This document shows positions 26 to 31,389 of a stretch of 43,648 nucleotides of DNA, piece after piece. Under the pieces are notes generated by a model. The model worked only from the letters and a program-made list of their open reading frames with translations, did not search any database and had not been told where the DNA came from. The stretch comes from an uncultured Bacilli bacterium (GTDB taxonomy: Bacteria; Bacillota_I; Bacilli_A; RF39; UBA660): contig CANRAA010000002.1 in the NCBI GenBank assembly GCA_947628485.1, forward strand, positions 1 to 43,648, given 5' to 3'. The first letter of the stretch is position 1. Every line of letters starts with the position of its first letter. A program made the translations under genes and the position numbers.

Positions 26-1255
26 TTAGGTTAATTTAATTTTTAAATTCTTGGTGGTTAGAAATTTAAAATTAACAGTTCCATCTTGATTTCCTGTTGT
101 TGTTCCTGGTAATGACTGTGTCAGTTCCATATTCCATATATGGTATTCTATTAATATCTTTATCCTGTCATTTATTGAATTATAAAATGTATCATTTAAA
201 TATGTATATAAAGTTGATGCATTCCACCCAACCGAGGAGGGAGTACCATGCCATGCTTGATTGGCTCCATATTTTTTTGCTTTAATTACTTTTAGTTTTC
301 CATCTGTTGTCACTCCTATTATTCGGTACATATTTTCTGGATCATTTTTGCATACATCTGGATTTTCTGATGCTCCTAAACATATATAATTATTTGTTAC
401 CTGATCTTTAGTTCCATAATATCTATATAATCCATCTACTGGCGTGTCTTGTAAATTTGGTATATTTTTTCTATTATCTATTAAGTCTTGTCCTCTTATA
501 CCTGAAGACTTGGTTTCAAATGTATGACTTGTTTTGCTTGATATTCCACTGTTACCAACATTGTCTGTTAAATATATATAATAGGTATAACTTTGGCCAT
601 CTTGTAAATTATTTATTGTTATATTTCCATCTGAACTTGTTACACATGTTCCTATATCGCTTGAATTTTGAGAATAACAATATTGATTTATTCCAGAGTA
701 ATTATCATTTGCTGTTACTGTTAATGTTACACTTGTCTCTTGGATATTGGTTGCTTGTACACTTGTTATGGTTGGTGGGGTTACATCATAAGTAATTGTA
801 TCACTACTTGATAACGATTTATTTCCATATTTGTCTTTCACAAACCCAAATATTACTTTTGGTCCTTCTGTTACATCTGGGAATGTATAACTATATTGAT
901 TGGTTGATTGAATTGGTTGCCATTTATTATCACATGTACTTATATCATCTGTCTCTGTTATACATACTTGTTCTAAATTACTATTATTATTTCCTGGAGT
1001 TATATATACTGTATTACTACTTACATTTGTATATTTTGGTTGTCCATTTTTTTCTTTTATATAAAATATATCTATTCTTGGTTTAAAGTTTCCTACCTTA
1101 CCATTAAATATTTGGACTGGGTCTGTTACACTATTATAATAAGCATGAGTATCCTTAATTACTAATTTAAACAAAGTTATAAATACCACTACAGAAAGGA
1201 TTGCTATTATTATACAAATTTTTTTATTTTCAAACTTTTTAATTTTATCCATCAT
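26..1255 (-). CDS. Surface/secreted protein, paralog A of a three-member family; C-terminally truncated relative to paralogs B and C
   Basis: 409-aa ORF. An N-terminal TM helix is followed by KDTHAYYNSVTD, which resembles the SipW-cognate AY[FY] signal motif. It then has a Cys-pair module, a DVTPPT linker and an Fn3/Ig-like module (ETSVTLTVTANDNYSGINQYCYS). A 51-nt tract at 1103-1153 is identical to 14162-14212 in paralog B, and the middle is very similar to paralog C. Homology stops at ...NQDGTV (near nt 70) and the last 15 codons are unrelated. Confidence 0.7.
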   Translation of the reverse strand: MMDKIKKFENKKICIIIAILSVVVFITLFKLVIKDTHAYYNSVTDPVQIFNGKVGNFKPRIDIFYIKEKNGQPKYTNVSSNTVYITPGNNNSNLEQVCITETDDISTCDNKWQPIQSTNQYSYTFPDVTEGPKVIFGFVKDKYGNKSLSSSDTITYDVTPPTITSVQATNIQETSVTLTVTANDNYSGINQYCYSQNSSDIGTCVTSSDGNITINNLQDGQSYTYYIYLTDNVGNSGISSKTSHTFETKSSGIRGQDLIDNRKNIPNLQDTPVDGLYRYYGTKDQVTNNYICLGASENPDVCKNDPENMYRIIGVTTDGKLKVIKAKKYGANQAWHGTPSSVGWNASTLYTYLNDTFYNSINDRIKILIEYHIWNMELTQSLPGTTTGNQDGTVNFKFLTTKNLKIKLT

Positions 1256-1426: not shown

Positions 1427-1882
1427 ATGAATAGATTAAAAGAATTAAGAAAAGAAAACAATTTATTACAAAAAGATATCGCGGCATTTTTAAAAATGAG
1501 TCAAAATGGTTATTCCCAATATGAAACGGAAATAACAGATGTTTCCACAACTATTTTAAGACGCCTATCAGAATTTTATAATGTATCAATAGATTATATT
1601 TTGTGTCTAACCAATATCAAAGATAAATATATGCCTTCTAAAGTTATTACTCCCACTAATTACATGAATAGACTTAGTGAAATAAGAAATGATTTAGATT
1701 TAAATCAATTTGAAGTTGCTAATATTTTAAATATGAGTCAAACAGGATATTCAGCCTATGAAGTAGGCATTTGTGATATACCTACCAAAGTATTAAAAAA
1801 ATTATCTTTATATTATAATGTTCCAATTGATTACTTACTTTATTTAACTGATGAAAGAATACCATATAAAAGAAAAAAATAG
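1427..1882 (+). CDS. XRE-family transcriptional regulator with two tandem HTH domains
   Basis: 151 aa containing two copies of an approximately 65-aa HTH_3-like unit (LKELRKENNLLQKDIAAFLKMSQNGYSQYE... and LSEIRNDLDLNQFEVANILNMSQTGYSAYE...). Each copy ends in IDY(I/L)L.LT. The gene is divergent from paralog A. Confidence 0.85.
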   Translation: MNRLKELRKENNLLQKDIAAFLKMSQNGYSQYETEITDVSTTILRRLSEFYNVSIDYILCLTNIKDKYMPSKVITPTNYMNRLSEIRNDLDLNQFEVANILNMSQTGYSAYEVGICDIPTKVLKKLSLYYNVPIDYLLYLTDERIPYKRKK

Positions 1883-9764: not shown

Positions 9765-10304
9765 TTAATAATTTTCAGCTTTTCTTTCAAAATAACTTTT
9801 AGCATGTTTACATACAGGACATACTTCTGGAGCTTTCTTCCCAATAACAACATGACCACAATTACGGCATACCCAAATAGTATCACCTTCAGAAGTAAAT
9901 ACTAATCCTTCATCCATATTACTAATTAATTTACGATATCTTTCTTCATGTTCTTTTTCAATTGCCCCAACCATTTCAAATAAAGTGGCAAGTCTATCAA
10001 AACCTTCTTCTTTGGCTGTCTCCGCAAATTCTTTATACATATCAGTCCATTCGTAATTTTCGCCACTGGCAGCATCTTCTAAGTTAGTATGTGTATCAGG
10101 AACATCGCCATCATGTAATTCTTTAAACCAAATCTTTGCATGTTCCTTTTCATTATTCGCAGTTTCTTCAAAAATGGCTGCTATTTGTTCATAACCTTCT
10201 TTTCTGGCTTTACTAGCATAATAAGTATATTTATTTCTTGCTTGGCTTTCTCCAGCAAATGCGGCCATTAAATTTTTTTCCGTTTGACTTCCTTTTAATT
10301 CCAT
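9765..10304 (-). CDS. rbr: Rubrerythrin
   Basis: 179 aa with a ferritin-like diiron domain ([16 protein letters not shown]) followed by a C-terminal rubredoxin-like CRNCG...CPVC. Confidence 0.9.
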
Positions 10305-10359
10305 AAAAACACTTCCTTCTTAATTAGTATTTTAAAGCAAATAGCAAAAAAAGTAAAGA

Positions 10360-11142
10360 TTAATTATGTCGATTATTCTTTACTTTCTTTAATTCTTTAT
10401 AAGCATTATTTAAATATTTATTATTGCTTTTTCCATCATTTTTAATTTTTTCAACTCTTTCATTAATTTCTTGCTTAATTTCTTCAGTTTTAGAGTTATC
10501 TTCAACTTCTTTATCAATCTTTTTTTCTTCGATTTCTTCTTGTTCTTCTTGTTTAATTTCCTTAGATAAATTAAATATTTTTAAAATATCTTTAACTATA
10601 ATATATAATGCTGGAATTAAAATCACTAATAACCAACCTAGACTACTTGATAAGAAGAATTGTAGTTTACCAAGTTTTGGAATAACGGCTTTAACGACCC
10701 CTACAACATTACTTTTCTTAACACAAACGGCATCTTCAGAAGTATTATTATCTCCTCTGGTTACCAAACATTTCGAGCCATCATCTAAGGTTTTCATGTC
10801 AACAACACGATGGGTAACCGTCATCCCATAATTAACTTGCCATGTCGATATATACGTAATAACATCATTTATTTTAACATCATCAATACTATTTATTTTG
10901 GTATTAATAATAACATCATATTTATCAATCGTGGGTTCCATACTTTCCGAAACCACGGTATAAACCGAAAACTTAGGTTCAAACATTTCACCATGGGTAG
11001 CATATAACCTAACCGAAATATAATAGTACACTAATAAAATTCCCACAACAACTAGTAAGATAAAAACAGTCCAACTTACTACTGTGGAAATATATTTAAA
11101 TAAACCTTTGAAATTGTAACGTGTTTCTTCTGCGCTTTCCAT
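10360..11142 (-). CDS. sipW: Signal peptidase I, ER/archaeal (SipW) type, with a long charged C-terminal tail
   Basis: It has the SESMEPTI box, THRVV (the His of the Ser-His type) and TRGDNN, flanked by N- and C-terminal TM helices. An approximately 75-aa E/K-rich tail follows the second TM helix. Confidence 0.85.
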   Translation of the reverse strand: MESAEETRYNFKGLFKYISTVVSWTVFILLVVVGILLVYYYISVRLYATHGEMFEPKFSVYTVVSESMEPTIDKYDVIINTKINSIDDVKINDVITYISTWQVNYGMTVTHRVVDMKTLDDGSKCLVTRGDNNTSEDAVCVKKSNVVGVVKAVIPKLGKLQFFLSSSLGWLLVILIPALYIIVKDILKIFNLSKEIKQEEQEEIEEKKIDKEVEDNSKTEEIKQEINERVEKIKNDGKSNNKYLNNAYKELKKVKNNRHN

Positions 11143-11211: not shown

Positions 11212-11940
11212 CTAGGCACTTGCTTTATACTCTATTTTAAAATTAGCCCTATAAACTTTACCAACCGTACTTTCTCTATTTCTAATTATGGTCTCACTTT
11301 TCCAATACATTTTCTTACTTTCTCCCGGTTTACTCGTAAGTTCATAATTAGTAGCCACATTAATATTACCCGTAATTCCTCCAACATCATAGAAATTACT
11401 AGTGATAGCGTCAATAGTACTAAAAGGCGTACTAATTACATAATTAACATTTTCCCAAGTTTCATTATCAAAAGAATAGGAAAATCTTACTATAACATCA
11501 CTATTAATACTACTAATTGCATTATATACAAAATCATTTTTTTCAATTTCATATTTAACATCAAAAACTAAACGACCATTTTCTTTAGAATCCTCTTTAG
11601 TATTAACCTCAACATTAGCATATGACTCAATATTTACTTCACTTTCCGTTATGGTATCATCAATAGCTTTTTCAAACGGACCATTATTGGTAATTAAAGT
11701 TTTACTTTTAACATTGTTTACTTCAATTACTTCTTTATTATCTTTTATATTAAATTTTTTCTCGTAATAATTACCTATATAAAATAGAGTACAAAATAAA
11801 GTCAACGTAAAAAGAACTATTAAGATGATTAATAGAATAACACTGGTATATTTATTACTATGTGCCACTTTTTTTATCTCTAAATCTTCTTTATCATCAA
11901 TCTTACTTTTACTACTAGTATCAGTAACCCTTTTTTTCAT
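11212..11940 (-). CDS. Membrane-anchored, beta-rich hypothetical protein directly upstream of sipW
   Basis: The ORF is open to 11994, but the ATG at 11940 follows AAGGAAGG. There is a single N-terminal TM helix and then a polar, beta-rich domain. It could be a SipW substrate or partner, but I see no clear AYF motif. Confidence 0.6.
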   Translation of the reverse strand: MKKRVTDTSSKSKIDDKEDLEIKKVAHSNKYTSVILLIILIVLFTLTLFCTLFYIGNYYEKKFNIKDNKEVIEVNNVKSKTLITNNGPFEKAIDDTITESEVNIESYANVEVNTKEDSKENGRLVFDVKYEIEKNDFVYNAISSINSDVIVRFSYSFDNETWENVNYVISTPFSTIDAITSNFYDVGGITGNINVATNYELTSKPGESKKMYWKSETIIRNRESTVGKVYRANFKIEYKASA

Positions 11941-12134
11941 ATTGACCTTCCTTATTCTTAAATAAAGTATAACAAAATAATGGTTATTTTGCAATTATTT
12001 TATGCATTTTTAAAAATAACGAGGTAATAGATTTGTTTCGTAAAACTCACCATCCTCGTTTTCATTTTGGATAAAATTCTAGATAATCTTTGTCTTCTAT
12101 CTTCCCTAGTATATAACCTTAATCATATAATCAT

Positions 12135-12266
12135 TCAAGTTATAGAAGGCTTTGGGCGAACCGCATTCGTATTGTTCACCCAATCGTTGTTCAAGTTGCC
12201 GTCTGTATTCACATTCCACGCATTGTAATTGCTGCCGGACTTGCCATACCTAACTGCATATTTCAA
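12135..12266 (-). pseudogene. Orphan, Asn-codon-rich fragment homologous to the extreme C-terminus of the surface-protein paralogs (DGR template-repeat-like or silent-cassette-like)
   Basis: The minus-strand translation is (TTG)KYAVRYGKSGSNYNAWNVNTDGNLNNDWVNNTNAVRPKPSIT*. It aligns to RYGMEGDTNEAWAIYQDGRL... of B and to RYGHDNGDFNVWYVRKDGSF...VIRP of C. Ten of 43 residues are Asn, all encoded AAT or AAC. The fragment starts about 225 nt (12266) downstream of the B stop, on the same strand. There is no ATG start. Confidence 0.5.
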
Positions 12267-12393
12267 GATTACCTACTTATATTATACAACATAATTTATC
12301 AAAACAATAATTTCTTCAAAAAAGAAAAATAGAGACCCACGCATAAGTATGGCTCCCTTACAAAAGTGTAAAACACTTTTTCCTTGCATATTC

Positions 12394-12490: not shown

Positions 12491-14320
12491 TTATTGTACT
12501 CTAAATGGATCAGTGCTTATTCCACTACCTGTAAGTGTAACACTTGACTGCAAATAGAAGACATATCTGCCGGTTCTACTGTGCCCTGTTTGCAAGGGGG
12601 CCAGGCGACCATCTTGATATATAGCCCACGCCTCATTGGTGTCACCCTCCATCCCATACCTACTCATCGTCCACTCGAAAAACTCCCAACAGCTCTCCTT
12701 ACAAGAATACAACCAACTATTTGCATTTGAATAATCACCAGGCCAATCAAACGCACTATCCGACCACTCAGATGGATAATCCCAAGAATTATAATAATCA
12801 CTGGCATACATTAATCCTATATATGCTTGTACTGTTCCATCTTGCTTTCCTGTTGTTTTTGATGTCCATGGATATGTTTTTGTTTGTTCCATGTTCCATG
12901 TATGCTTTTCGATTAATCCTTTTATTCTTGTGTTTATTGAATTGTAAAATTCTCCATTCAAGTTTGTATATAAGTCTGATTCATTCCAAATCACTTTACT
13001 GTATAGATAACCCCAATAGCCATAAACCCCATAACGATCGTGAATCACTTTTAGTTTGCCATCTGTTGTTATCCCTATTATTCGGTACATATCACGACCA
13101 TCTTGACATTTGTCTGTCGACGTAGAGCCTAAACAGATATAATTGTTTGTTACTTCATCTTTTGTTCCATAATATCTATACATTCCATCCACTGCTGTTG
13201 TTTGTAATGTTTGAACTCCGTTTGCACCAGTTGCATATTTCCTTAAATAATCTATTGGTCCACTTTCTTTTGTTTTAAATGCATAATGTACTCTATTTGC
13301 TATACCACTATTGCCTGCTTTGTCTTTGGCATAGACATAGAAAGTGTAACTTGTTCCGGCTTTTAAACTGTTTACTACAATACTTGCACTTGTTACACAG
13401 GTATAGTCTGTCTCTTTTGCTGAGTTCTTTTGGGAGTAACAATATTTTTCTATTCCACTTGTTGGACTTACTCCTATCTTATTATCATTTGCTGTTATAC
13501 TTAATGTTAAGTTTGTTTCATTTATTGTTGGGGCTGTTACTTTTGTTACTGTTGGTGGTGTTACATCATATATTATGGCACTTGTCTTAACACTTGATAT
13601 ATTACCAGCTTTATCTCTTACATATCCTCTTACCGTCTTTGCCCCTTCTGTTGTATTGGTAAAGGTATAACTTGTACTTTTTCCTACTGTTACCCATGTA
13701 CAATTCTTTGTATCTGTTCCTTCGGTTACACACATATCTTGAGGATTTGTTTCGGTATATGTAAAATATACTGTATTTGCCTGTAGATTGGTATATTTTG
13801 TAGCATCTTCATTTTTTATATAAAACTTATTTATTACTGGTAAGGTCTTATCATAGGTTATTACATCACTACTTGATATTGATTTATTCCCATATTTATC
13901 TTTAACAAATCCAAAGATGGTTTTGTTTCCATCTGTTTTAGTATCTTTAAATGTATAACTATACTGTTTATTTGAAGTTATGTTTTGCCATGTACAACTA
14001 CTTACATTATTTGTTTCTGTTATACATACTTGATCTATATTTTTATTATTTGTTCCTGGGGTTATATATACTGTATTACCTCCCGCATTTGTATACTTTG
14101 GAGTTGTTGTTTGTTTTATATAGAATGATGTTATCTTTGGTTTAAAATCTCCTACCTTACTATTAAATATTTGGACTGGGTCTGTTACACTATTATAATA
14201 AGCATGAGTATCTTTTACTGCTACATTTATTATTGTTATTACTAACAGTAATGTTATAACCCCTACTAATGTTATTCCTTCTTTACTCTTTATTAGTTCT
14301 TTTAGTTTTTCTTTATTCAT
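12491..14320 (-). CDS. Surface/secreted protein, paralog B (two Cys-pair modules, Fn3/Ig-like module, full C-terminal domain)
   Basis: 609 aa. The signal anchor is followed by KDTHAYYNSVTDPVQ. There are two tandem approximately 100-aa Cys-pair modules, a DVTPPT linker and an Fn3-like module. The C-terminal domain carries LYRYYG, NNYICLG, MYRIIG..DGKLKVI, W.ESDLYTNLNGEFYNS and the ending ...FYLQSSVTLTGSG. Confidence 0.8.
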   Translation of the reverse strand: MNKEKLKELIKSKEGITLVGVITLLLVITIINVAVKDTHAYYNSVTDPVQIFNSKVGDFKPKITSFYIKQTTTPKYTNAGGNTVYITPGTNNKNIDQVCITETNNVSSCTWQNITSNKQYSYTFKDTKTDGNKTIFGFVKDKYGNKSISSSDVITYDKTLPVINKFYIKNEDATKYTNLQANTVYFTYTETNPQDMCVTEGTDTKNCTWVTVGKSTSYTFTNTTEGAKTVRGYVRDKAGNISSVKTSAIIYDVTPPTVTKVTAPTINETNLTLSITANDNKIGVSPTSGIEKYCYSQKNSAKETDYTCVTSASIVVNSLKAGTSYTFYVYAKDKAGNSGIANRVHYAFKTKESGPIDYLRKYATGANGVQTLQTTAVDGMYRYYGTKDEVTNNYICLGSTSTDKCQDGRDMYRIIGITTDGKLKVIHDRYGVYGYWGYLYSKVIWNESDLYTNLNGEFYNSINTRIKGLIEKHTWNMEQTKTYPWTSKTTGKQDGTVQAYIGLMYASDYYNSWDYPSEWSDSAFDWPGDYSNANSWLYSCKESCWEFFEWTMSRYGMEGDTNEAWAIYQDGRLAPLQTGHSRTGRYVFYLQSSVTLTGSGISTDPFRVQ

Positions 14321-14491: not shown

Positions 14492-14758
14492 TTGGTGATA
14501 CGATTGAAATTAAATAAAATTTTTGGTAACAATTTAAAATATTTTAGGTTTCATAAAAAGATGACTCAAGAAAAATTAGCAGAACTATCAGAAACTAGTG
14601 TTACATACATAAGTCAACTTGAACTAGGTCACCATACGCCATCATTTGATAAATTAGAATTAATCTCTAAAGCTTTAAATGTTGAACCATACGAATTTTA
14701 TGTTAAAAGAGATTTTAAAACCTTAGCTCCTAGAGTCGATATGAAACATTATAAATAG
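14492..14758 (+). CDS. XRE-family HTH regulator (single domain)
   Basis: It contains FGNNLKYFRFHKKMTQEKLAELSETSVTYISQLELG. The gene is divergent from paralog B. The start codon is uncertain (TTG or GTG candidates at 14492-14506). Confidence 0.8.
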   Translation: MVIRLKLNKIFGNNLKYFRFHKKMTQEKLAELSETSVTYISQLELGHHTPSFDKLELISKALNVEPYEFYVKRDFKTLAPRVDMKHYK

Positions 14759-14852: not shown

Positions 14853-15083
14853 ATGACTAATAAAAACGATGAGAATTATATATATGATTTAGTTTCGAAA
14901 AATATTAAAAAACAAAGAAAATTAAAAAAACTAACTCAAAAAGAACTTGCAGAAAAAATGAATTATTCAACTCAATTTATATCAAACATTGAAAGTAAAA
15001 ACCATCAAACTTTTAGTTTGGGTACACTATATAGAATTGCATTAGTTTTAGATATTGATATTTCCGAATTTTTTAAAGAATAA
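14853..15083 (+). CDS. XRE-family HTH regulator (single domain)
   Basis: 76 aa containing KKQRKLKKLTQKELAEKMNYSTQFISNIESK. It is the second of two adjacent single-HTH genes. Confidence 0.8.
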   Translation: MTNKNDENYIYDLVSKNIKKQRKLKKLTQKELAEKMNYSTQFISNIESKNHQTFSLGTLYRIALVLDIDISEFFKE

Positions 15084-28889: not shown

Positions 28890-30947
28890 CTAACTTGGTA
28901 TGTATGGATTACTTTCAGTACCTTCTCCTGTTAGTTTAACGTTGGATTGGAGATAGAAGACTGGACGAATCACATATAAGTAGGTCAAATCATAGAAACT
29001 CGTGTCACCGGCATAAAAGGACCCGTCTTTCCGCACATACCACACATTGAAGTCACCGTTATCGTGGCCATACCTAGTCATTGTCCATTCAAATTGTTGT
29101 TCACCATCACTTGTACTTGTTCCGTTGGTTATATATAACCAACTATCCGTATTTCCATCTCCACTATATCCTCCCCATGATTTATAATAATCACTTGCAT
29201 ACATTAACCCTATTGGATATGCGTCTATTGTTAGTGGTGCTTTTTCTTGTTCCGGTGGACAATCAGCTGAGTAATCACATAAATACGTTACTTTTCCTTT
29301 ATACCATTTTACTTCTTTTATCTTACTCTTTATTCTTGTATCTAGTTTTGTTGTATCATTGTAAAATAATGCACTATTCAAATTTCTTTGTAAATCTGCT
29401 TCATCCCAATCTGTATCAGTCAAATAATTATTATGCCATGGATATTTTCCTATGGATATAGCTTTGATTACTTTTATTTGTCCTTTATCAATGTCTAATT
29501 TAGATGAACCACTTTCTGTTCCATCAGCTATTCCTATTATTCTATACATGTATTTATTTTTATCTTCATCACTTTGACATGTGTTTCCACTTGGTCCTAA
29601 ACAGATATAGTTATTATCTACTACATCATATTTTCCATAATATCTATATAAGCCATTGACTGGATTGTCTTGTAATGTTGATATTTTTGTTCTATCATTT
29701 ATCAAGTCTTGTCCTGTTATTCCGAAAGACTCTGTTTCAAATGTATGACTTGTTTTGTTTGAGATGCCACTATTACCGGCTTTGTCTGTTAAGTAGAAGT
29801 AATATGTGTATGATGTTCCATCTTGTAAATTACTTATTGTTATATTGCCATCTGTACTTGTTACACATGTACCTACATCTGTTGAATTACTATTTGTTGA
29901 ATAACAATATTTATCTATTCCTGATAAATCAGTATTTGCATTTACTTTTAATGTTACACTTGTTTCACCTAATTCAATGTCTTCTATTGTATCTATACTT
30001 GGTGGTGTTACATCATAGATTATACTTGCTGTTACTTGAGTTGATATATTTCCTATCTTATCTTTTAGATAACCATAATAGGTATGATCTCCTTCTCTTT
30101 CTTCTAAGGTAATATTTTCTTGTATAGATTGTTGCCCATTTGTTGGTTTCCATTGGCATCCTTCATAACTATCATTGGTTGTTATACAATAGTCTGTTAC
30201 ATCATTATCACTCCAACTTAAATGTAAGATGTTTTCTAAACTATTTGTATATTGTTGTCCATCTACCTTTTCATTAAAATAAAATTCACTTACTGTTGGA
30301 GCTTCACTATCGGTATTACATTTAAATTCATCTATTATTATATCAACATTTAATGATCTCTTTGCTAAATATGATTGATCATCATTTCTATTAGTAAATT
30401 TTAAATAAGCTTTTATATATTGTGTATTGGTATCTGTTATGACAAATTCTAACTCTGCTGGAAACTTTTCATTTATTTTTGTTAAATCTGTTATATTTGT
30501 ATATATTCCATTTATTAAACTTATTTCTAAATCTCCTTCTCTTATTAAAGAAGCCATATCGCCACTTAAATTAACTTTAGCTTTGGCAGTACATACATGT
30601 TTCTCTTCTAAATCTCCAATTACTTCTACTTTCCCTATCTCTGTTAATCCATCTTCTTTATTTGTTACATAAGGTAGTTTACTATCACTTGTGGCATAAT
30701 ATTCTCTATCTATTCTATTATAAGCCATATCTTTAACATCTAACCTTATATGAAAATCTTCTAATCCTCCAGAGAGTTTTATTTGCTTATTACTTCCGGT
30801 TGTTATTGTTACTTTGGTACTTGTTCCTTCTCCATTTACTTGTAAACTAAAGTAAGCATAAGTTGAACCTACTACAACTAGAAGTAATATAAGTACTATT
30901 ATGATACTTCCTATTAATATTTTCTTTTTATTATTCTTATTTTCCAT
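28890..30947 (-). CDS. Surface/secreted protein, paralog C (extra N-terminal module, Cys-pair module, Fn3/Ig-like module, full C-terminal domain)
   Basis: The signal anchor is followed by GSTYAYFSLQ, a close match to the SipW-cognate G-T-x-A-Y-F-S motif. An extra approximately 190-aa beta-rich module follows. The rest is collinear with A and B and ends ...VIRPVFYLQSNVKLTGEG. The ATG at 30947 follows a TAGGAG Shine-Dalgarno sequence, although the ORF-track start is at 31001. Confidence 0.8.
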   Translation of the reverse strand: MENKNNKKKILIGSIIIVLILLLVVVGSTYAYFSLQVNGEGTSTKVTITTGSNKQIKLSGGLEDFHIRLDVKDMAYNRIDREYYATSDSKLPYVTNKEDGLTEIGKVEVIGDLEEKHVCTAKAKVNLSGDMASLIREGDLEISLINGIYTNITDLTKINEKFPAELEFVITDTNTQYIKAYLKFTNRNDDQSYLAKRSLNVDIIIDEFKCNTDSEAPTVSEFYFNEKVDGQQYTNSLENILHLSWSDNDVTDYCITTNDSYEGCQWKPTNGQQSIQENITLEEREGDHTYYGYLKDKIGNISTQVTASIIYDVTPPSIDTIEDIELGETSVTLKVNANTDLSGIDKYCYSTNSNSTDVGTCVTSTDGNITISNLQDGTSYTYYFYLTDKAGNSGISNKTSHTFETESFGITGQDLINDRTKISTLQDNPVNGLYRYYGKYDVVDNNYICLGPSGNTCQSDEDKNKYMYRIIGIADGTESGSSKLDIDKGQIKVIKAISIGKYPWHNNYLTDTDWDEADLQRNLNSALFYNDTTKLDTRIKSKIKEVKWYKGKVTYLCDYSADCPPEQEKAPLTIDAYPIGLMYASDYYKSWGGYSGDGNTDSWLYITNGTSTSDGEQQFEWTMTRYGHDNGDFNVWYVRKDGSFYAGDTSFYDLTYLYVIRPVFYLQSNVKLTGEGTESNPYIPS

Positions 30948-30967
30948 ATTACAACTCCTATAATTTA

Positions 30968-31020
30968 ATTTATACTTCAATTTTATTATATCATACTTCA
31001 AGTAAAATTGAAGTATAAAT
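30968..31020. promoter_or_regulatory. Perfect 18-bp inverted repeat (candidate operator) between paralog C and its XRE regulator
   Basis: ATTTATACTTCAATTTTA (30968-30985) and TAAAATTGAAGTATAAAT (31003-31020) are separated by a 17-nt spacer. The spacer contains a third ATACTTCAA half-site. Confidence 0.55.
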
Positions 31021-31062
31021 TATATAATTTTATTAATTACTTATATAGGAGGTAAAGCGACA

Positions 31063-31389
31063 ATGAATAATTTGAAGAAAATTGCTAAAGCAAAAAATAA
31101 ATCACTAACTAGTTTATCTGTAGACTTAGAAATTAGTCCAGAAGCTATAAGTCAATACATAAGTGGAAAAATAAAACCAAAGGCAGACATATTAATTAAA
31201 ATGGCTAAAATATTAAATACCACTACTGACTATTTACTAGATTTAACTGATAATCCTAATCCTACTGATCTTAATTTAAATGAAAAAGAAAATATGTTAA
31301 TAACTAATTATCGAAATTTAAATAACACTGAAAAAAGTCAAGTTAATGCTTACATTCAAGCAATAATTGACTTAAAAAATATTAATTAA
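31063..31389 (+). CDS. XRE-family HTH regulator (single domain)
   Basis: 108 aa containing KNKSLTSLSVDLEISPEAISQYISGK...TTDYLLDLTD. The gene is divergent from paralog C. Confidence 0.8.
   Translation: MNNLKKIAKAKNKSLTSLSVDLEISPEAISQYISGKIKPKADILIKMAKILNTTTDYLLDLTDNPNPTDLNLNEKENMLITNYRNLNNTEKSQVNAYIQAIIDLKNIN

Follow-up and report, generated by a model that had tools for sequence, protein, structure and literature searches.

The three genes for large surface proteins, A, B and C, that lie in a 43,648-bp stretch of DNA from an uncultured Bacilli bacterium (the window, which is the entire contig C2 of an assembly of 1.30 Mb in 98 contigs, about 90% complete and with about 27% G+C) probably belong to a large repertoire of lectin-tipped surface proteins that is linked to a diversity-generating retroelement (DGR) and paired with regulators of the XRE type. 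The original prediction, made from the letters of the window, had counted three family members; here, we found about 39-41 copies of the C-terminal domain in the assembly. What it had taken for a three-gene fibre system dependent on the signal peptidase SipW presents itself as a lectin-tipped repertoire, in which no TasA/camelysin fibre domain is detectable. Nor does it appear to be the wholly new kind of surface system that had been proposed, since the heads resemble a lectin-like scaffold of the DGR-diversified kind and the genome carries a DGR with matching template repeats (TRs). The organism is a cell-walled, uncultured rabbit-gut Bacilli bacterium of about 1.3 Mb: its genome encodes penicillin-binding proteins and sortases, and the related database records are metagenome-assembled genomes of uncultured Bacilli from the gut of rabbit ("Lapin") and goat.

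Architecture of the paralogs and their head domain

The family features of the window on which the argument rests are the following:

26-1255, minus strand: paralog A, 409 aa, C-terminally incomplete; family homology stops at window base 78
12491-14320, minus strand: paralog B, 609 aa (translation, alignment, AlphaFold2 model, Foldseek search, homologues with PF19789)
12494-13213, minus strand: DUF6273 lectin-like domain of B, residues 370-609 (homology, predicted fold)
28890-30947, minus strand: paralog C, 685 aa when translated from an ATG at 30947; alternative start at 31001

The homology and the common architecture that had been predicted for A, B and C held up on analysis, each being composed of a signal anchor, Cys-pair beta-sandwich modules, a DVTPP linker, an Fn3-like module and a C-terminal domain (C-domain). 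The other two paralogs are 58% and 40% identical to A in full-length alignment. The motifs YDVTPP, (L/M)YRYYG, NNYICLG, MYRIIG and FYN are common to all three, and (R/I)(Y/P)VFYLQS.V.LTG.G is shared by B and C. The motifs named earlier, K(V)I among them, are present in the family, but two details needed correction: B reads RYVFYLQS where RPVFYLQS had been stated, and the C-domain of A stops halfway, the final 17 codons and the stop of this gene lying inside window bases 1-77. These 77 bases are identical with the ends of six other contigs (C57, C66, C95, C16, C7 and C36), so that a break of the assembly falls within A or immediately behind it, and the assembly does not resolve the 3' end of A. 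They are a repeat or an assembly-graph node that truncates A and probably other family genes too.

The AlphaFold2 model of full-length B, built with 54 homologues (mean pLDDT 86.9), places a transmembrane (TM) helix at residues 16-43, a disordered segment at 44-56, three modules of the Cys-pair beta-sandwich (Ig/Fn3-like) kind at about 60-350 and, at 370-609, a C-domain of mixed alpha/beta structure. A Foldseek search with the whole model retrieved tandem Fn3 arrays and adhesin stalks (fibronectin, SiiE, GhpA); because nothing beyond such arrays was returned, the head was modelled alone (pTM 0.74). Searched against the PDB, the isolated head gave a single significant match, 9qa6, the IgA peptidase of Thomasclavelia ramosa (E 4.4e-5), followed by weak matches to C-type lectins, e.g. 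CD23 and NKR-P1. The N-terminal domain of this peptidase is annotated as DUF6273 (PMC12402451), and in gut phages DUF6273 is a C-lectin-like domain, the C-terminal part of which is the variable region (VR) of DGR targets (PMC10743442, PMC11792537). As modelled, the head has a C-type-lectin-like fold of the DUF6273 family.

At the level of the Pfam hidden Markov model (HMM; PF19789, gathering cut-off 23.5 bits), a paralog on another contig (C3:21145-22263) scores 40.9 bits, and A, with half a domain, stays under the cut-off at 19.2 bits. B and C gave no DUF6273 match at E<0.1, so that their membership rests on homology to paralogs which do match the model. About 20 database homologues carry a precomputed PF19789 match. 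Indeed, the earlier naming of the domain as DUF6273, offered with hesitation, was right, as the score of the C3 paralog, the annotated homologues and the fold match to 9qa6 all indicate.

Each family protein is a stalk of one to three Cys-pair beta-sandwich modules with a C-terminal DUF6273 head. Paralog C carries an extra N-terminal module of about 215 aa in front of its two beta-sandwich modules and its DUF6273 head, which has a GC-rich tip; this extra module is homologous to nine stand-alone proteins, described below under their signal motif GATFAYFS (25-29% identity, Cys pair conserved).

Family size and distribution

How large is the family, and how far does it extend? With B as query, tblastn matched 51 places in the genome, and in iterated HMM searches over all open reading frames (ORFs) of the genome, the C-domain was detected in 41 ORFs and the N-terminal motif in 35. 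Besides A, at least 13 fused genes of the A/B/C type were found, and at least 13 two-gene units. In a two-gene unit, gene 1 encodes a protein of about 235 aa with the family N-terminus (K/N-T-H-A-Y-Y..PIFNSKVGNF), and gene 2, beginning 12-15 nt after it, encodes about 375 aa, in which a plain signal anchor is followed by about 110 aa of juxtamembrane domain and by the head known from the fused genes. Most members keep long intact frames; several are fragments or carry in-frame stops. Family members often lie at contig ends, where many further copies are fragments, and the family counts are approximate for this reason.

The distribution was surveyed in 40 relatives, i.e. 24 genomes of the same genus and 16 of other genera of the class. 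The head was found in 23 of the 24 same-genus genomes, with 1-103 matches per genome of 0.9-1.5 Mb (103 lectin-head matches in the 1.1-Mb sister genome G004), and in none of the 16 others. We consider it likely, as part of the overall reading, that the family consists of genus-specific, hyper-expanded exported modular binding proteins.

Template-repeat cassettes and their targets

The link to a DGR comes from a non-coding element of about 280 bp, of which the genome holds six copies (on contigs C7, C20, C85, C8, C95 and in the window) and of which copies exist also in relatives. The window copy had been missed by the original prediction and has the following parts:

12012-12289, minus strand: stand-alone DGR TR RNA cassette, 200 nt downstream of the B stop codon
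12281-12288, minus strand: extended -10-like box TGTATAAT, promoter-like
12265-12275, minus strand: 5' arm of the closing helix (fold prediction)
12114-12242, minus strand: AAY-rich TR core (composition, TR/VR match)
12080-12090, minus strand: 3' arm of the closing helix (fold prediction)
12018-12060, minus strand: terminator hairpin, then a T run (compensatory changes)

All copies are built alike, with the promoter-like box, a conserved leader, an AAY-rich core of about 125 nt followed by frame-breaking indels, and a conserved 3' segment of about 105 nt that ends in a hairpin and a T run. The conceptual translation of the core reads ..SNYNAWNVNT.GNLNN..VNNTNAVRP. In RNAalifold predictions, the leader pairs with the 3' segment, an invariant 11-bp helix closing around the core, and the terminator stem shows compensatory changes; no Rfam family was found for the cassette at gathering or relaxed thresholds. 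We also considered the six elements as gene remnants or as VRs and rejected this for their own promoter-like box and conserved non-coding scaffold, for the indels that break the frame right after GTTCGCC, and for the AGCC that TRs carry where VRs have AGTC.

In at least four paralogs, nearly all differences from a TR fall on TR adenines:

C7:20798-22006, paired with the TR of C20: identity 81/99, 15 adenine and 3 other mismatches, p 5e-6
C55:5481-6668, paired with the TR of C20: identity 80/96, 13 adenine and 3 other mismatches, p 4e-5
C18:4965-7310, paired with the TR of C7: identity 63/78, 14 adenine and 1 other mismatch, p 2e-6
C11:28460-29980, paired with the window TR: identity 64/88, 19 adenine and 5 other mismatches, p 2.5e-6

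The best target of the window cassette is thus located on another contig, and this C11 paralog has a private ..TTGG codon pair in common with the window TR. The GC-rich flanks (GCGTGG; GCGGTTCGCCC) are identical in TR and VR. At the 3' boundary, the AGCC of all TRs versus the AGTC of the VRs resembles, as a sequence pattern, the distinction between IMH* and IMH (initiation of mutagenic homing). From such pairs, the DGR appears to rewrite the tips of some family copies.

The reverse transcriptase locus

The genome encodes two reverse transcriptases (RTs), one on contig C7 and one on C24. A DGR RT and the accessory protein Avd are both encoded on C7:

C7:24318-24704: Avd, upstream of the RT; PHROG 3206 with E 4e-15, bAvd 28.5 bits, NF033474 with E 2e-8, below its cut-off
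C7:24688-25812: DGR RT; RVT_1 66-72 bits, PHROG RT family with E 1e-72

A conserved ORF of 93 aa (orf93) also precedes this RT, and a two-gene unit of the family is found 2.7 kb upstream of it. The second RT (C24:5726-6697) is of the retron St85 type (217.6 bits, cut-off 235) and unrelated, and was rejected as a part of the DGR. Orthologues of the C7 RT (57-97% identity) occur in 14 of the 24 same-genus genomes and in 0 of the 16 genomes of other genera. The gene order of target, one to four TR cassettes, orf93, avd and RT is kept in four sister genomes, and across species RT, Avd, orf93 and the TR scaffolds are 70-97% identical, with promoter, closing helix and terminator intact. TRs are usually single and directly adjacent to the RT gene (PMC5758913), so that several dispersed, self-contained TR cassettes are unusual.

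Other genes were seen near the cassettes. A gene for an Rpn-family recombination-promoting nuclease/transposase (C7:22604-23488, i.e. L093:3605-4489) lies between TR cassettes inside the DGR locus and has homologues at the same place in sister genomes. Genes of the DUF3800 family (26.8 bits, cut-off 21) stand directly 3' of TR cassettes in a sister genome (L045:8347-9042 and 9997-10686), and a broken DUF3800 copy follows the C85 cassette (C85:261-940); DUF3800 may be associated with the TRs.

Paired XRE regulators

The regulators that face the three paralogs, and the candidate operators in the gaps between them, are:

1427-1882, plus strand: double-HTH XRE, divergent from A; two HTH_3 domains, E 2.7e-23
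1330-1403: inverted repeat in the A/XRE gap, candidate operator; 19-nt arms, 89% complementary
14492-14758, plus strand: XRE, divergent from B across a 172-bp gap; HTH_3 E 2.2e-13
14853-15083, plus strand: second XRE, downstream of the former; HTH_3 E 6.7e-14
31063-31389, plus strand: XRE, divergent from C across a gap of 62-115 bp, depending on the start codon of C; HTH_3 E 3.4e-11
30960-31028: inverted repeat in the C/XRE gap, candidate operator; 26-nt arms, 92% complementary

The divergent XRE pairing of each paralog was confirmed with the HTH_3 (helix-turn-helix) model, on which the four genes score 43-82 bits (PF01381, cut-off 23 bits): A faces a double-HTH protein, B two single-HTH genes and C one. 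The inverted repeats that had been noted in the divergent promoter regions are convincing for A and C, but weak for B (24 nt, 75%, in very AT-rich DNA). Is this pairing common in the family? In the same genome, a divergent XRE lies within 700 bp of 23 of the 35 genes with the N-terminal motif, several of the others being at contig ends, and in other genomes one was found at 19 of 34 related loci versus 2 of 319 background ORFs (at least 200 aa). The HTH domains of the paired XREs have a median identity of 27%, none above 77%, and between B and its closest paralog, two proteins that are 74% identical, the intergenic regions show no conservation. Such data fit a putative private, locus-specific control.

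Signal ends and signal peptidases

The N-termini that had been reported, KDTHAYYNS in A and B and GSTYAYFS in C, are indeed present and follow directly after the hydrophobic helix in the translations. We scanned the first 110 residues of all ORFs for [STNG]-x-A-[YFW]-[YFW] behind a hydrophobic run, with residues 110-220 as control, and found this TasA-like signal motif in 39 ORFs versus 0 in the control segments; 30 of the 39 are family members. The remaining nine are the GATFAYFS proteins, about 230 aa long and with near-identical VGATFAYFS signal ends, which form tandem arrays and for which neither Pfam nor the PDB gave a relative. The array on C56 is adjoined by type IV pilin-like genes. 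For B, cleavage is predicted after A40 (T38-H-A40|Y41), which is plausible because T-x-A satisfies the -3/-1 rule. The proposal of SipW-class N-termini is supported by the T-x-A-[YF]-[YF] motif after the TM helix, but the search with the signal model TIGR04088 stayed below the cut-off.

The enzymes and the arrays in question are:

10360-11142, minus strand: signal peptidase I of the archaeal/ER (SipW-like) type; its C-terminal tail is long and charged
C6:36452-37507: the other signal peptidase of the SipW type, preceded in the same protein by a polytopic membrane domain of about 225 aa; TIGR02228 84 bits
C49:1738-7958, C56:4713-7846 and C1:96-1046: GATFAYFS arrays, nine paralogous proteins

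The peptidase of the window passes the type model TIGR02228 (86 bits, cut-off 51.85), as expected from its earlier naming, but is no SipW orthologue by the Bacillus equivalog model NF046067 (83.8 bits, cut-off 190). No LepB-type peptidase was found in the assembly, in which about 10% of the genome is missing; just two genes for signal peptidase I were found, each of the SipW type, and the SipW-type enzyme is therefore probably a housekeeping one. For the same reason we rejected a dedicated SipW. The family likely depends on a SipW-type enzyme, but trivially so, and SipW dependence as a distinguishing feature did not survive the finding that both peptidases are of this type and that the HMM for the cognate signal failed. 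In the related loci, a sipW gene was found within 6 kb in 1 of 80 (L047, with a family gene 2 kb upstream of the sipW homologue); that B and sipW are neighbours here is probably a coincidence. One further gene of the window separates the TR cassette from that of the peptidase:

11212-11940, minus strand: orphan membrane-anchored protein of 242 aa (from MKKRV)

For this protein, neither a paralog in the genome nor a match in the 80 related loci was found, and no family model matched it.

No LPXTG motif was found in the family. Attachment or strand exchange could be the task of the mature N-terminus, which is conserved and disordered. Membership in the TasA/camelysin family (Peptidase_M73) was considered and rejected, as no module gave a Pfam, NCBIfam or PDB sequence match to it; in the same three databases, no homology to TasA/CalY was found for A, B and C, the 235-aa partners or the GATFAYFS family.

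Weighing the evidence

Several observations weigh against a DGR-linked, XRE-paired repertoire, and some concern the paralogs of the window themselves. A, B and C match no TR (DNA alignment scores of 22-41, no adenine bias), so that a VR differing from a TR at adenines is a property of the four paralogs listed above and is missing in these three. Even the best TR/VR pairs contain 1-5 non-adenine mismatches, and thus the targets may be fossils, in part or altogether. The RT-proximal cassette (C7:23680-23821, i.e. L093:4680-4822) has lost its TR core and retains leader, closing-helix arms and terminator, while sister genomes have a full cassette there. The copy numbers are inflated and uncertain, as the assembly with its 98 contigs breaks within the family. 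The 62 XRE-type HTH ORFs in 1.3 Mb make chance pairing less unlikely, against which the background test (2 of 319 ORFs) argues. Finally, TIGR04088 (cut-off 19 bits) was not reached: C scored 16.8 bits (E 0.005), a GATFAYFS protein 11.6 bits, and A and B gave no match. Since a canonical-looking GATFAYFS protein also fails, this model is insensitive here.

What, then, is the relation of the window paralogs to the DGR? Judged from the DNA alignments, A, B and C are not current targets. We rejected B as a target of the adjacent TR, since the two do not match at the DNA level and B no longer has the boundary motif. Where a variable region would lie, B carries a distinct segment:

12521-12700, minus strand: lectin tip of B, GC-rich and adenine-poor

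On the coding strand this tip has 49-58% G+C and 24-27% A, versus about 30% G+C and 40-50% A in the rest of the gene; the tip of C shows the same pattern, milder. The GCGGTTCGCCC boundary is lost in B and kept in C with two changes. With such tips, rich in GC and poor in adenine, B and C look like one-time DGR targets, or descendants of targets, that are now fixed.

Could the window nevertheless hold a dedicated SipW-dependent fibre or adhesin system of the TasA/TapA type? The mature N-terminus YYNSVTDPVQIFNSKVGNF would then be a donor strand from which fibres form, with the 235-aa proteins as shaft and the lectin proteins as tip adhesins. TasA fibres do assemble by donor-strand exchange (PMC9674648), and the first 20 mature residues are conserved between fused and two-gene forms and disordered in the monomer model, as a donor strand would be. 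A T-x-A-[YF]-[YF] end after a TM helix is found in TasA and camelysin as well, the same-strand order of B, (TR), membrane protein and sipW recalls tapA-sipW-tasA, and the L047 locus with its family gene upstream of sipW speaks for such a link too. We consider it unlikely all the same, as neither a TasA or Peptidase_M73 domain nor a PDB sequence relative was found, the TIGR04088 cut-off was missed, the two peptidases, both SipW-type and with no LepB-type enzyme found beside them, are probably housekeeping, just one of the 80 related loci has sipW nearby, and the stalk is made of ordinary Ig/Fn3 sandwiches, typical of monomeric adhesins. It is also improbable, somewhat more so, that the family is simply decaying, the DGR and most copies being relics and diversity arising by duplication, recombination and drift, with the adjacent XREs as unrelated genes of the addiction or defence type that do not regulate surface genes. 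The truncation of A, the members that are fragments or contain in-frame stops, the empty RT-proximal cassette, the non-adenine mismatches in all TR/VR pairs, an RT that is absent or broken in 10 of the 24 same-genus genomes, and the poor conservation of XREs and intergenic regions between sister loci would all agree with decay. Yet most members have kept long intact frames, RT, Avd, orf93 and TR scaffolds remain 70-97% identical across species with their RNA signals intact, and the divergent XRE position is kept in other genomes; drift, moreover, would erase an adenine bias framed by perfectly conserved flanks.

A phage origin, i.e. receptor-binding or tail-fibre proteins accompanied by the repressors of prophage remnants and a phage-borne DGR, is the explanation to which we give the least credit, and we regard it as very improbable. 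Gut phages are the best-known source of DUF6273 heads and DGRs (PMC10743442, PMC11792537), prophages typically carry XRE regulators of the Cro/CI type, both RT and Avd have matches among the PHROG families, and an Rpn-family nuclease/transposase gene lies within the DGR locus. But B and C have no significant functional PHROG match, every member starts with a signal anchor, and the loci stand singly, scattered among housekeeping genes (in the window pheST, ftsH, tilS and prfB), with no phage structural genes nearby; with B and C lacking a PHROG function in such surroundings, a prophage origin was rejected. The family and the RT are conserved genus-wide, the RT locus being syntenic, and it is non-phage DGRs that characteristically have remote targets (PMC5758913).

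A possible mode of action

The lectin-tipped repertoire that we favour would work as follows. The proteins would be exported by the Sec pathway via the N-terminal hydrophobic helix; one of the two SipW-type peptidases would then cut them behind T-x-A, or else the helix would be retained as an anchor. The lectin tip, once displayed, would serve as a receptor or adhesin, with ligands from the host, the diet or other microbes. At each locus, the private XRE may act via the inverted repeats in the shared promoter region as an on/off control, and the DGR may rewrite the tips of TR-matched members in trans.

We speculate further, and much more tentatively, that private XRE switches and one multi-template DGR form the two layers of a programmable surface-recognition repertoire. 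In the first layer, dozens of XRE-gated cassettes would allow few lectin-tipped proteins to be displayed at once. In the second, one chromosomal DGR would rewrite the tips in trans from a library of at least six independently transcribed TR RNA genes, each a scaffold of promoter, closing helix, TR and terminator that could be dispersed and duplicated and that would address its own, TR-specific subset of paralogs. To our knowledge, a multi-template DGR in combination with a gene choice that recalls antigenic variation has not been described.

Comparison with known systems

Among the closest likenesses is that to the TvpA family of Treponema denticola and to Mtd of Bordetella phage, which also have a lectin-like C-terminal domain with a TR-templated tip and adenine-specific differences; the cellular DGRs of the Treponema type also share Avd and RT, several targets remote from the RT and a non-phage context (PMC5758913, PMC4891356). 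However, their domain is a CLec domain of the FGE-sulfatase type, in contrast to the DUF6273 head here. Moreover, the present genome has about 40 paralogs, only a subset of them TR-matched, an XRE gene for each target unit, and at least six self-contained promoter-TR-scaffold-terminator cassettes scattered over the genome. The phage DUF6273 proteins (tentaclins, Mtd-like DGR targets) and the IgA protease of T. ramosa belong to the same domain family and fold, combine it with Ig/Fn3 modules as found here, and have the VR at the C-terminal end of DUF6273 (PMC10743442, PMC11792537, PMC12402451). The proteins described here differ from them in being cellular and signal-anchored, with the head at the C-terminus, without a peptidase domain and without a phage context.

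To the tapA-sipW-tasA/SinR system of Bacillus there is a likeness by analogy only: a gene for an ER/archaeal-type peptidase lies beside genes with T-x-A-x-F-type signal ends, and an XRE-family regulator is present at the locus (PMC9674648, PMC10151520). Here, in contrast, homology to TasA/TapA is missing, the peptidase is non-orthologous by the NCBIfam cut-off and probably general, and the clients are dozens of unlinked loci, each with a different XRE. The type V pili of Bacteroides are another case in which the DGR of a gut commensal diversifies surface adhesins, as we propose here (bioRxiv 10.1101/2024.11.15.621889). They belong to another phylum and use a pilin scaffold, as opposed to the Ig stalk with DUF6273 head. 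Neither a large paralog family nor XRE pairing has been reported for these pili.

Multigene variable surface families, such as vsp, vlp and vsa of Mycoplasma, are known from host-associated bacteria with small genomes. The family described here is similar in the large share of the genome given to paralogous surface proteins and in the many copies at assembly breaks, and its mosaic structure suggests recombination. It differs in that no lipoproteins are involved and neither invertible promoters nor repeat slippage are evident; control is apparently exerted by local XREs, and diversification comes in part from a retroelement. Relative to the closest known systems, the differences are the scale of the family, its fused and split forms, the TasA-like signal ends, the XRE at each locus and the portable TR cassettes.

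Implications

About 4-5% of the 1.3-Mb genome of this gut symbiont is spent on a single lectin-tipped surface family, an investment that points to the recognition of host, diet or neighbours as a central need of the lineage. For gut Bacilli more generally, the family provides a concrete context in which DUF6273 proteins can be annotated. The layout of one XRE per locus offers a testable model of the choice among alternative surface receptors, and the TR cassette system a compact natural scaffold for retargetable mutagenesis. One conserved DGR, combined with several stand-alone TR RNA cassettes that are portable and with many paralogous targets at remote sites, would add to the DGR architectures known so far.

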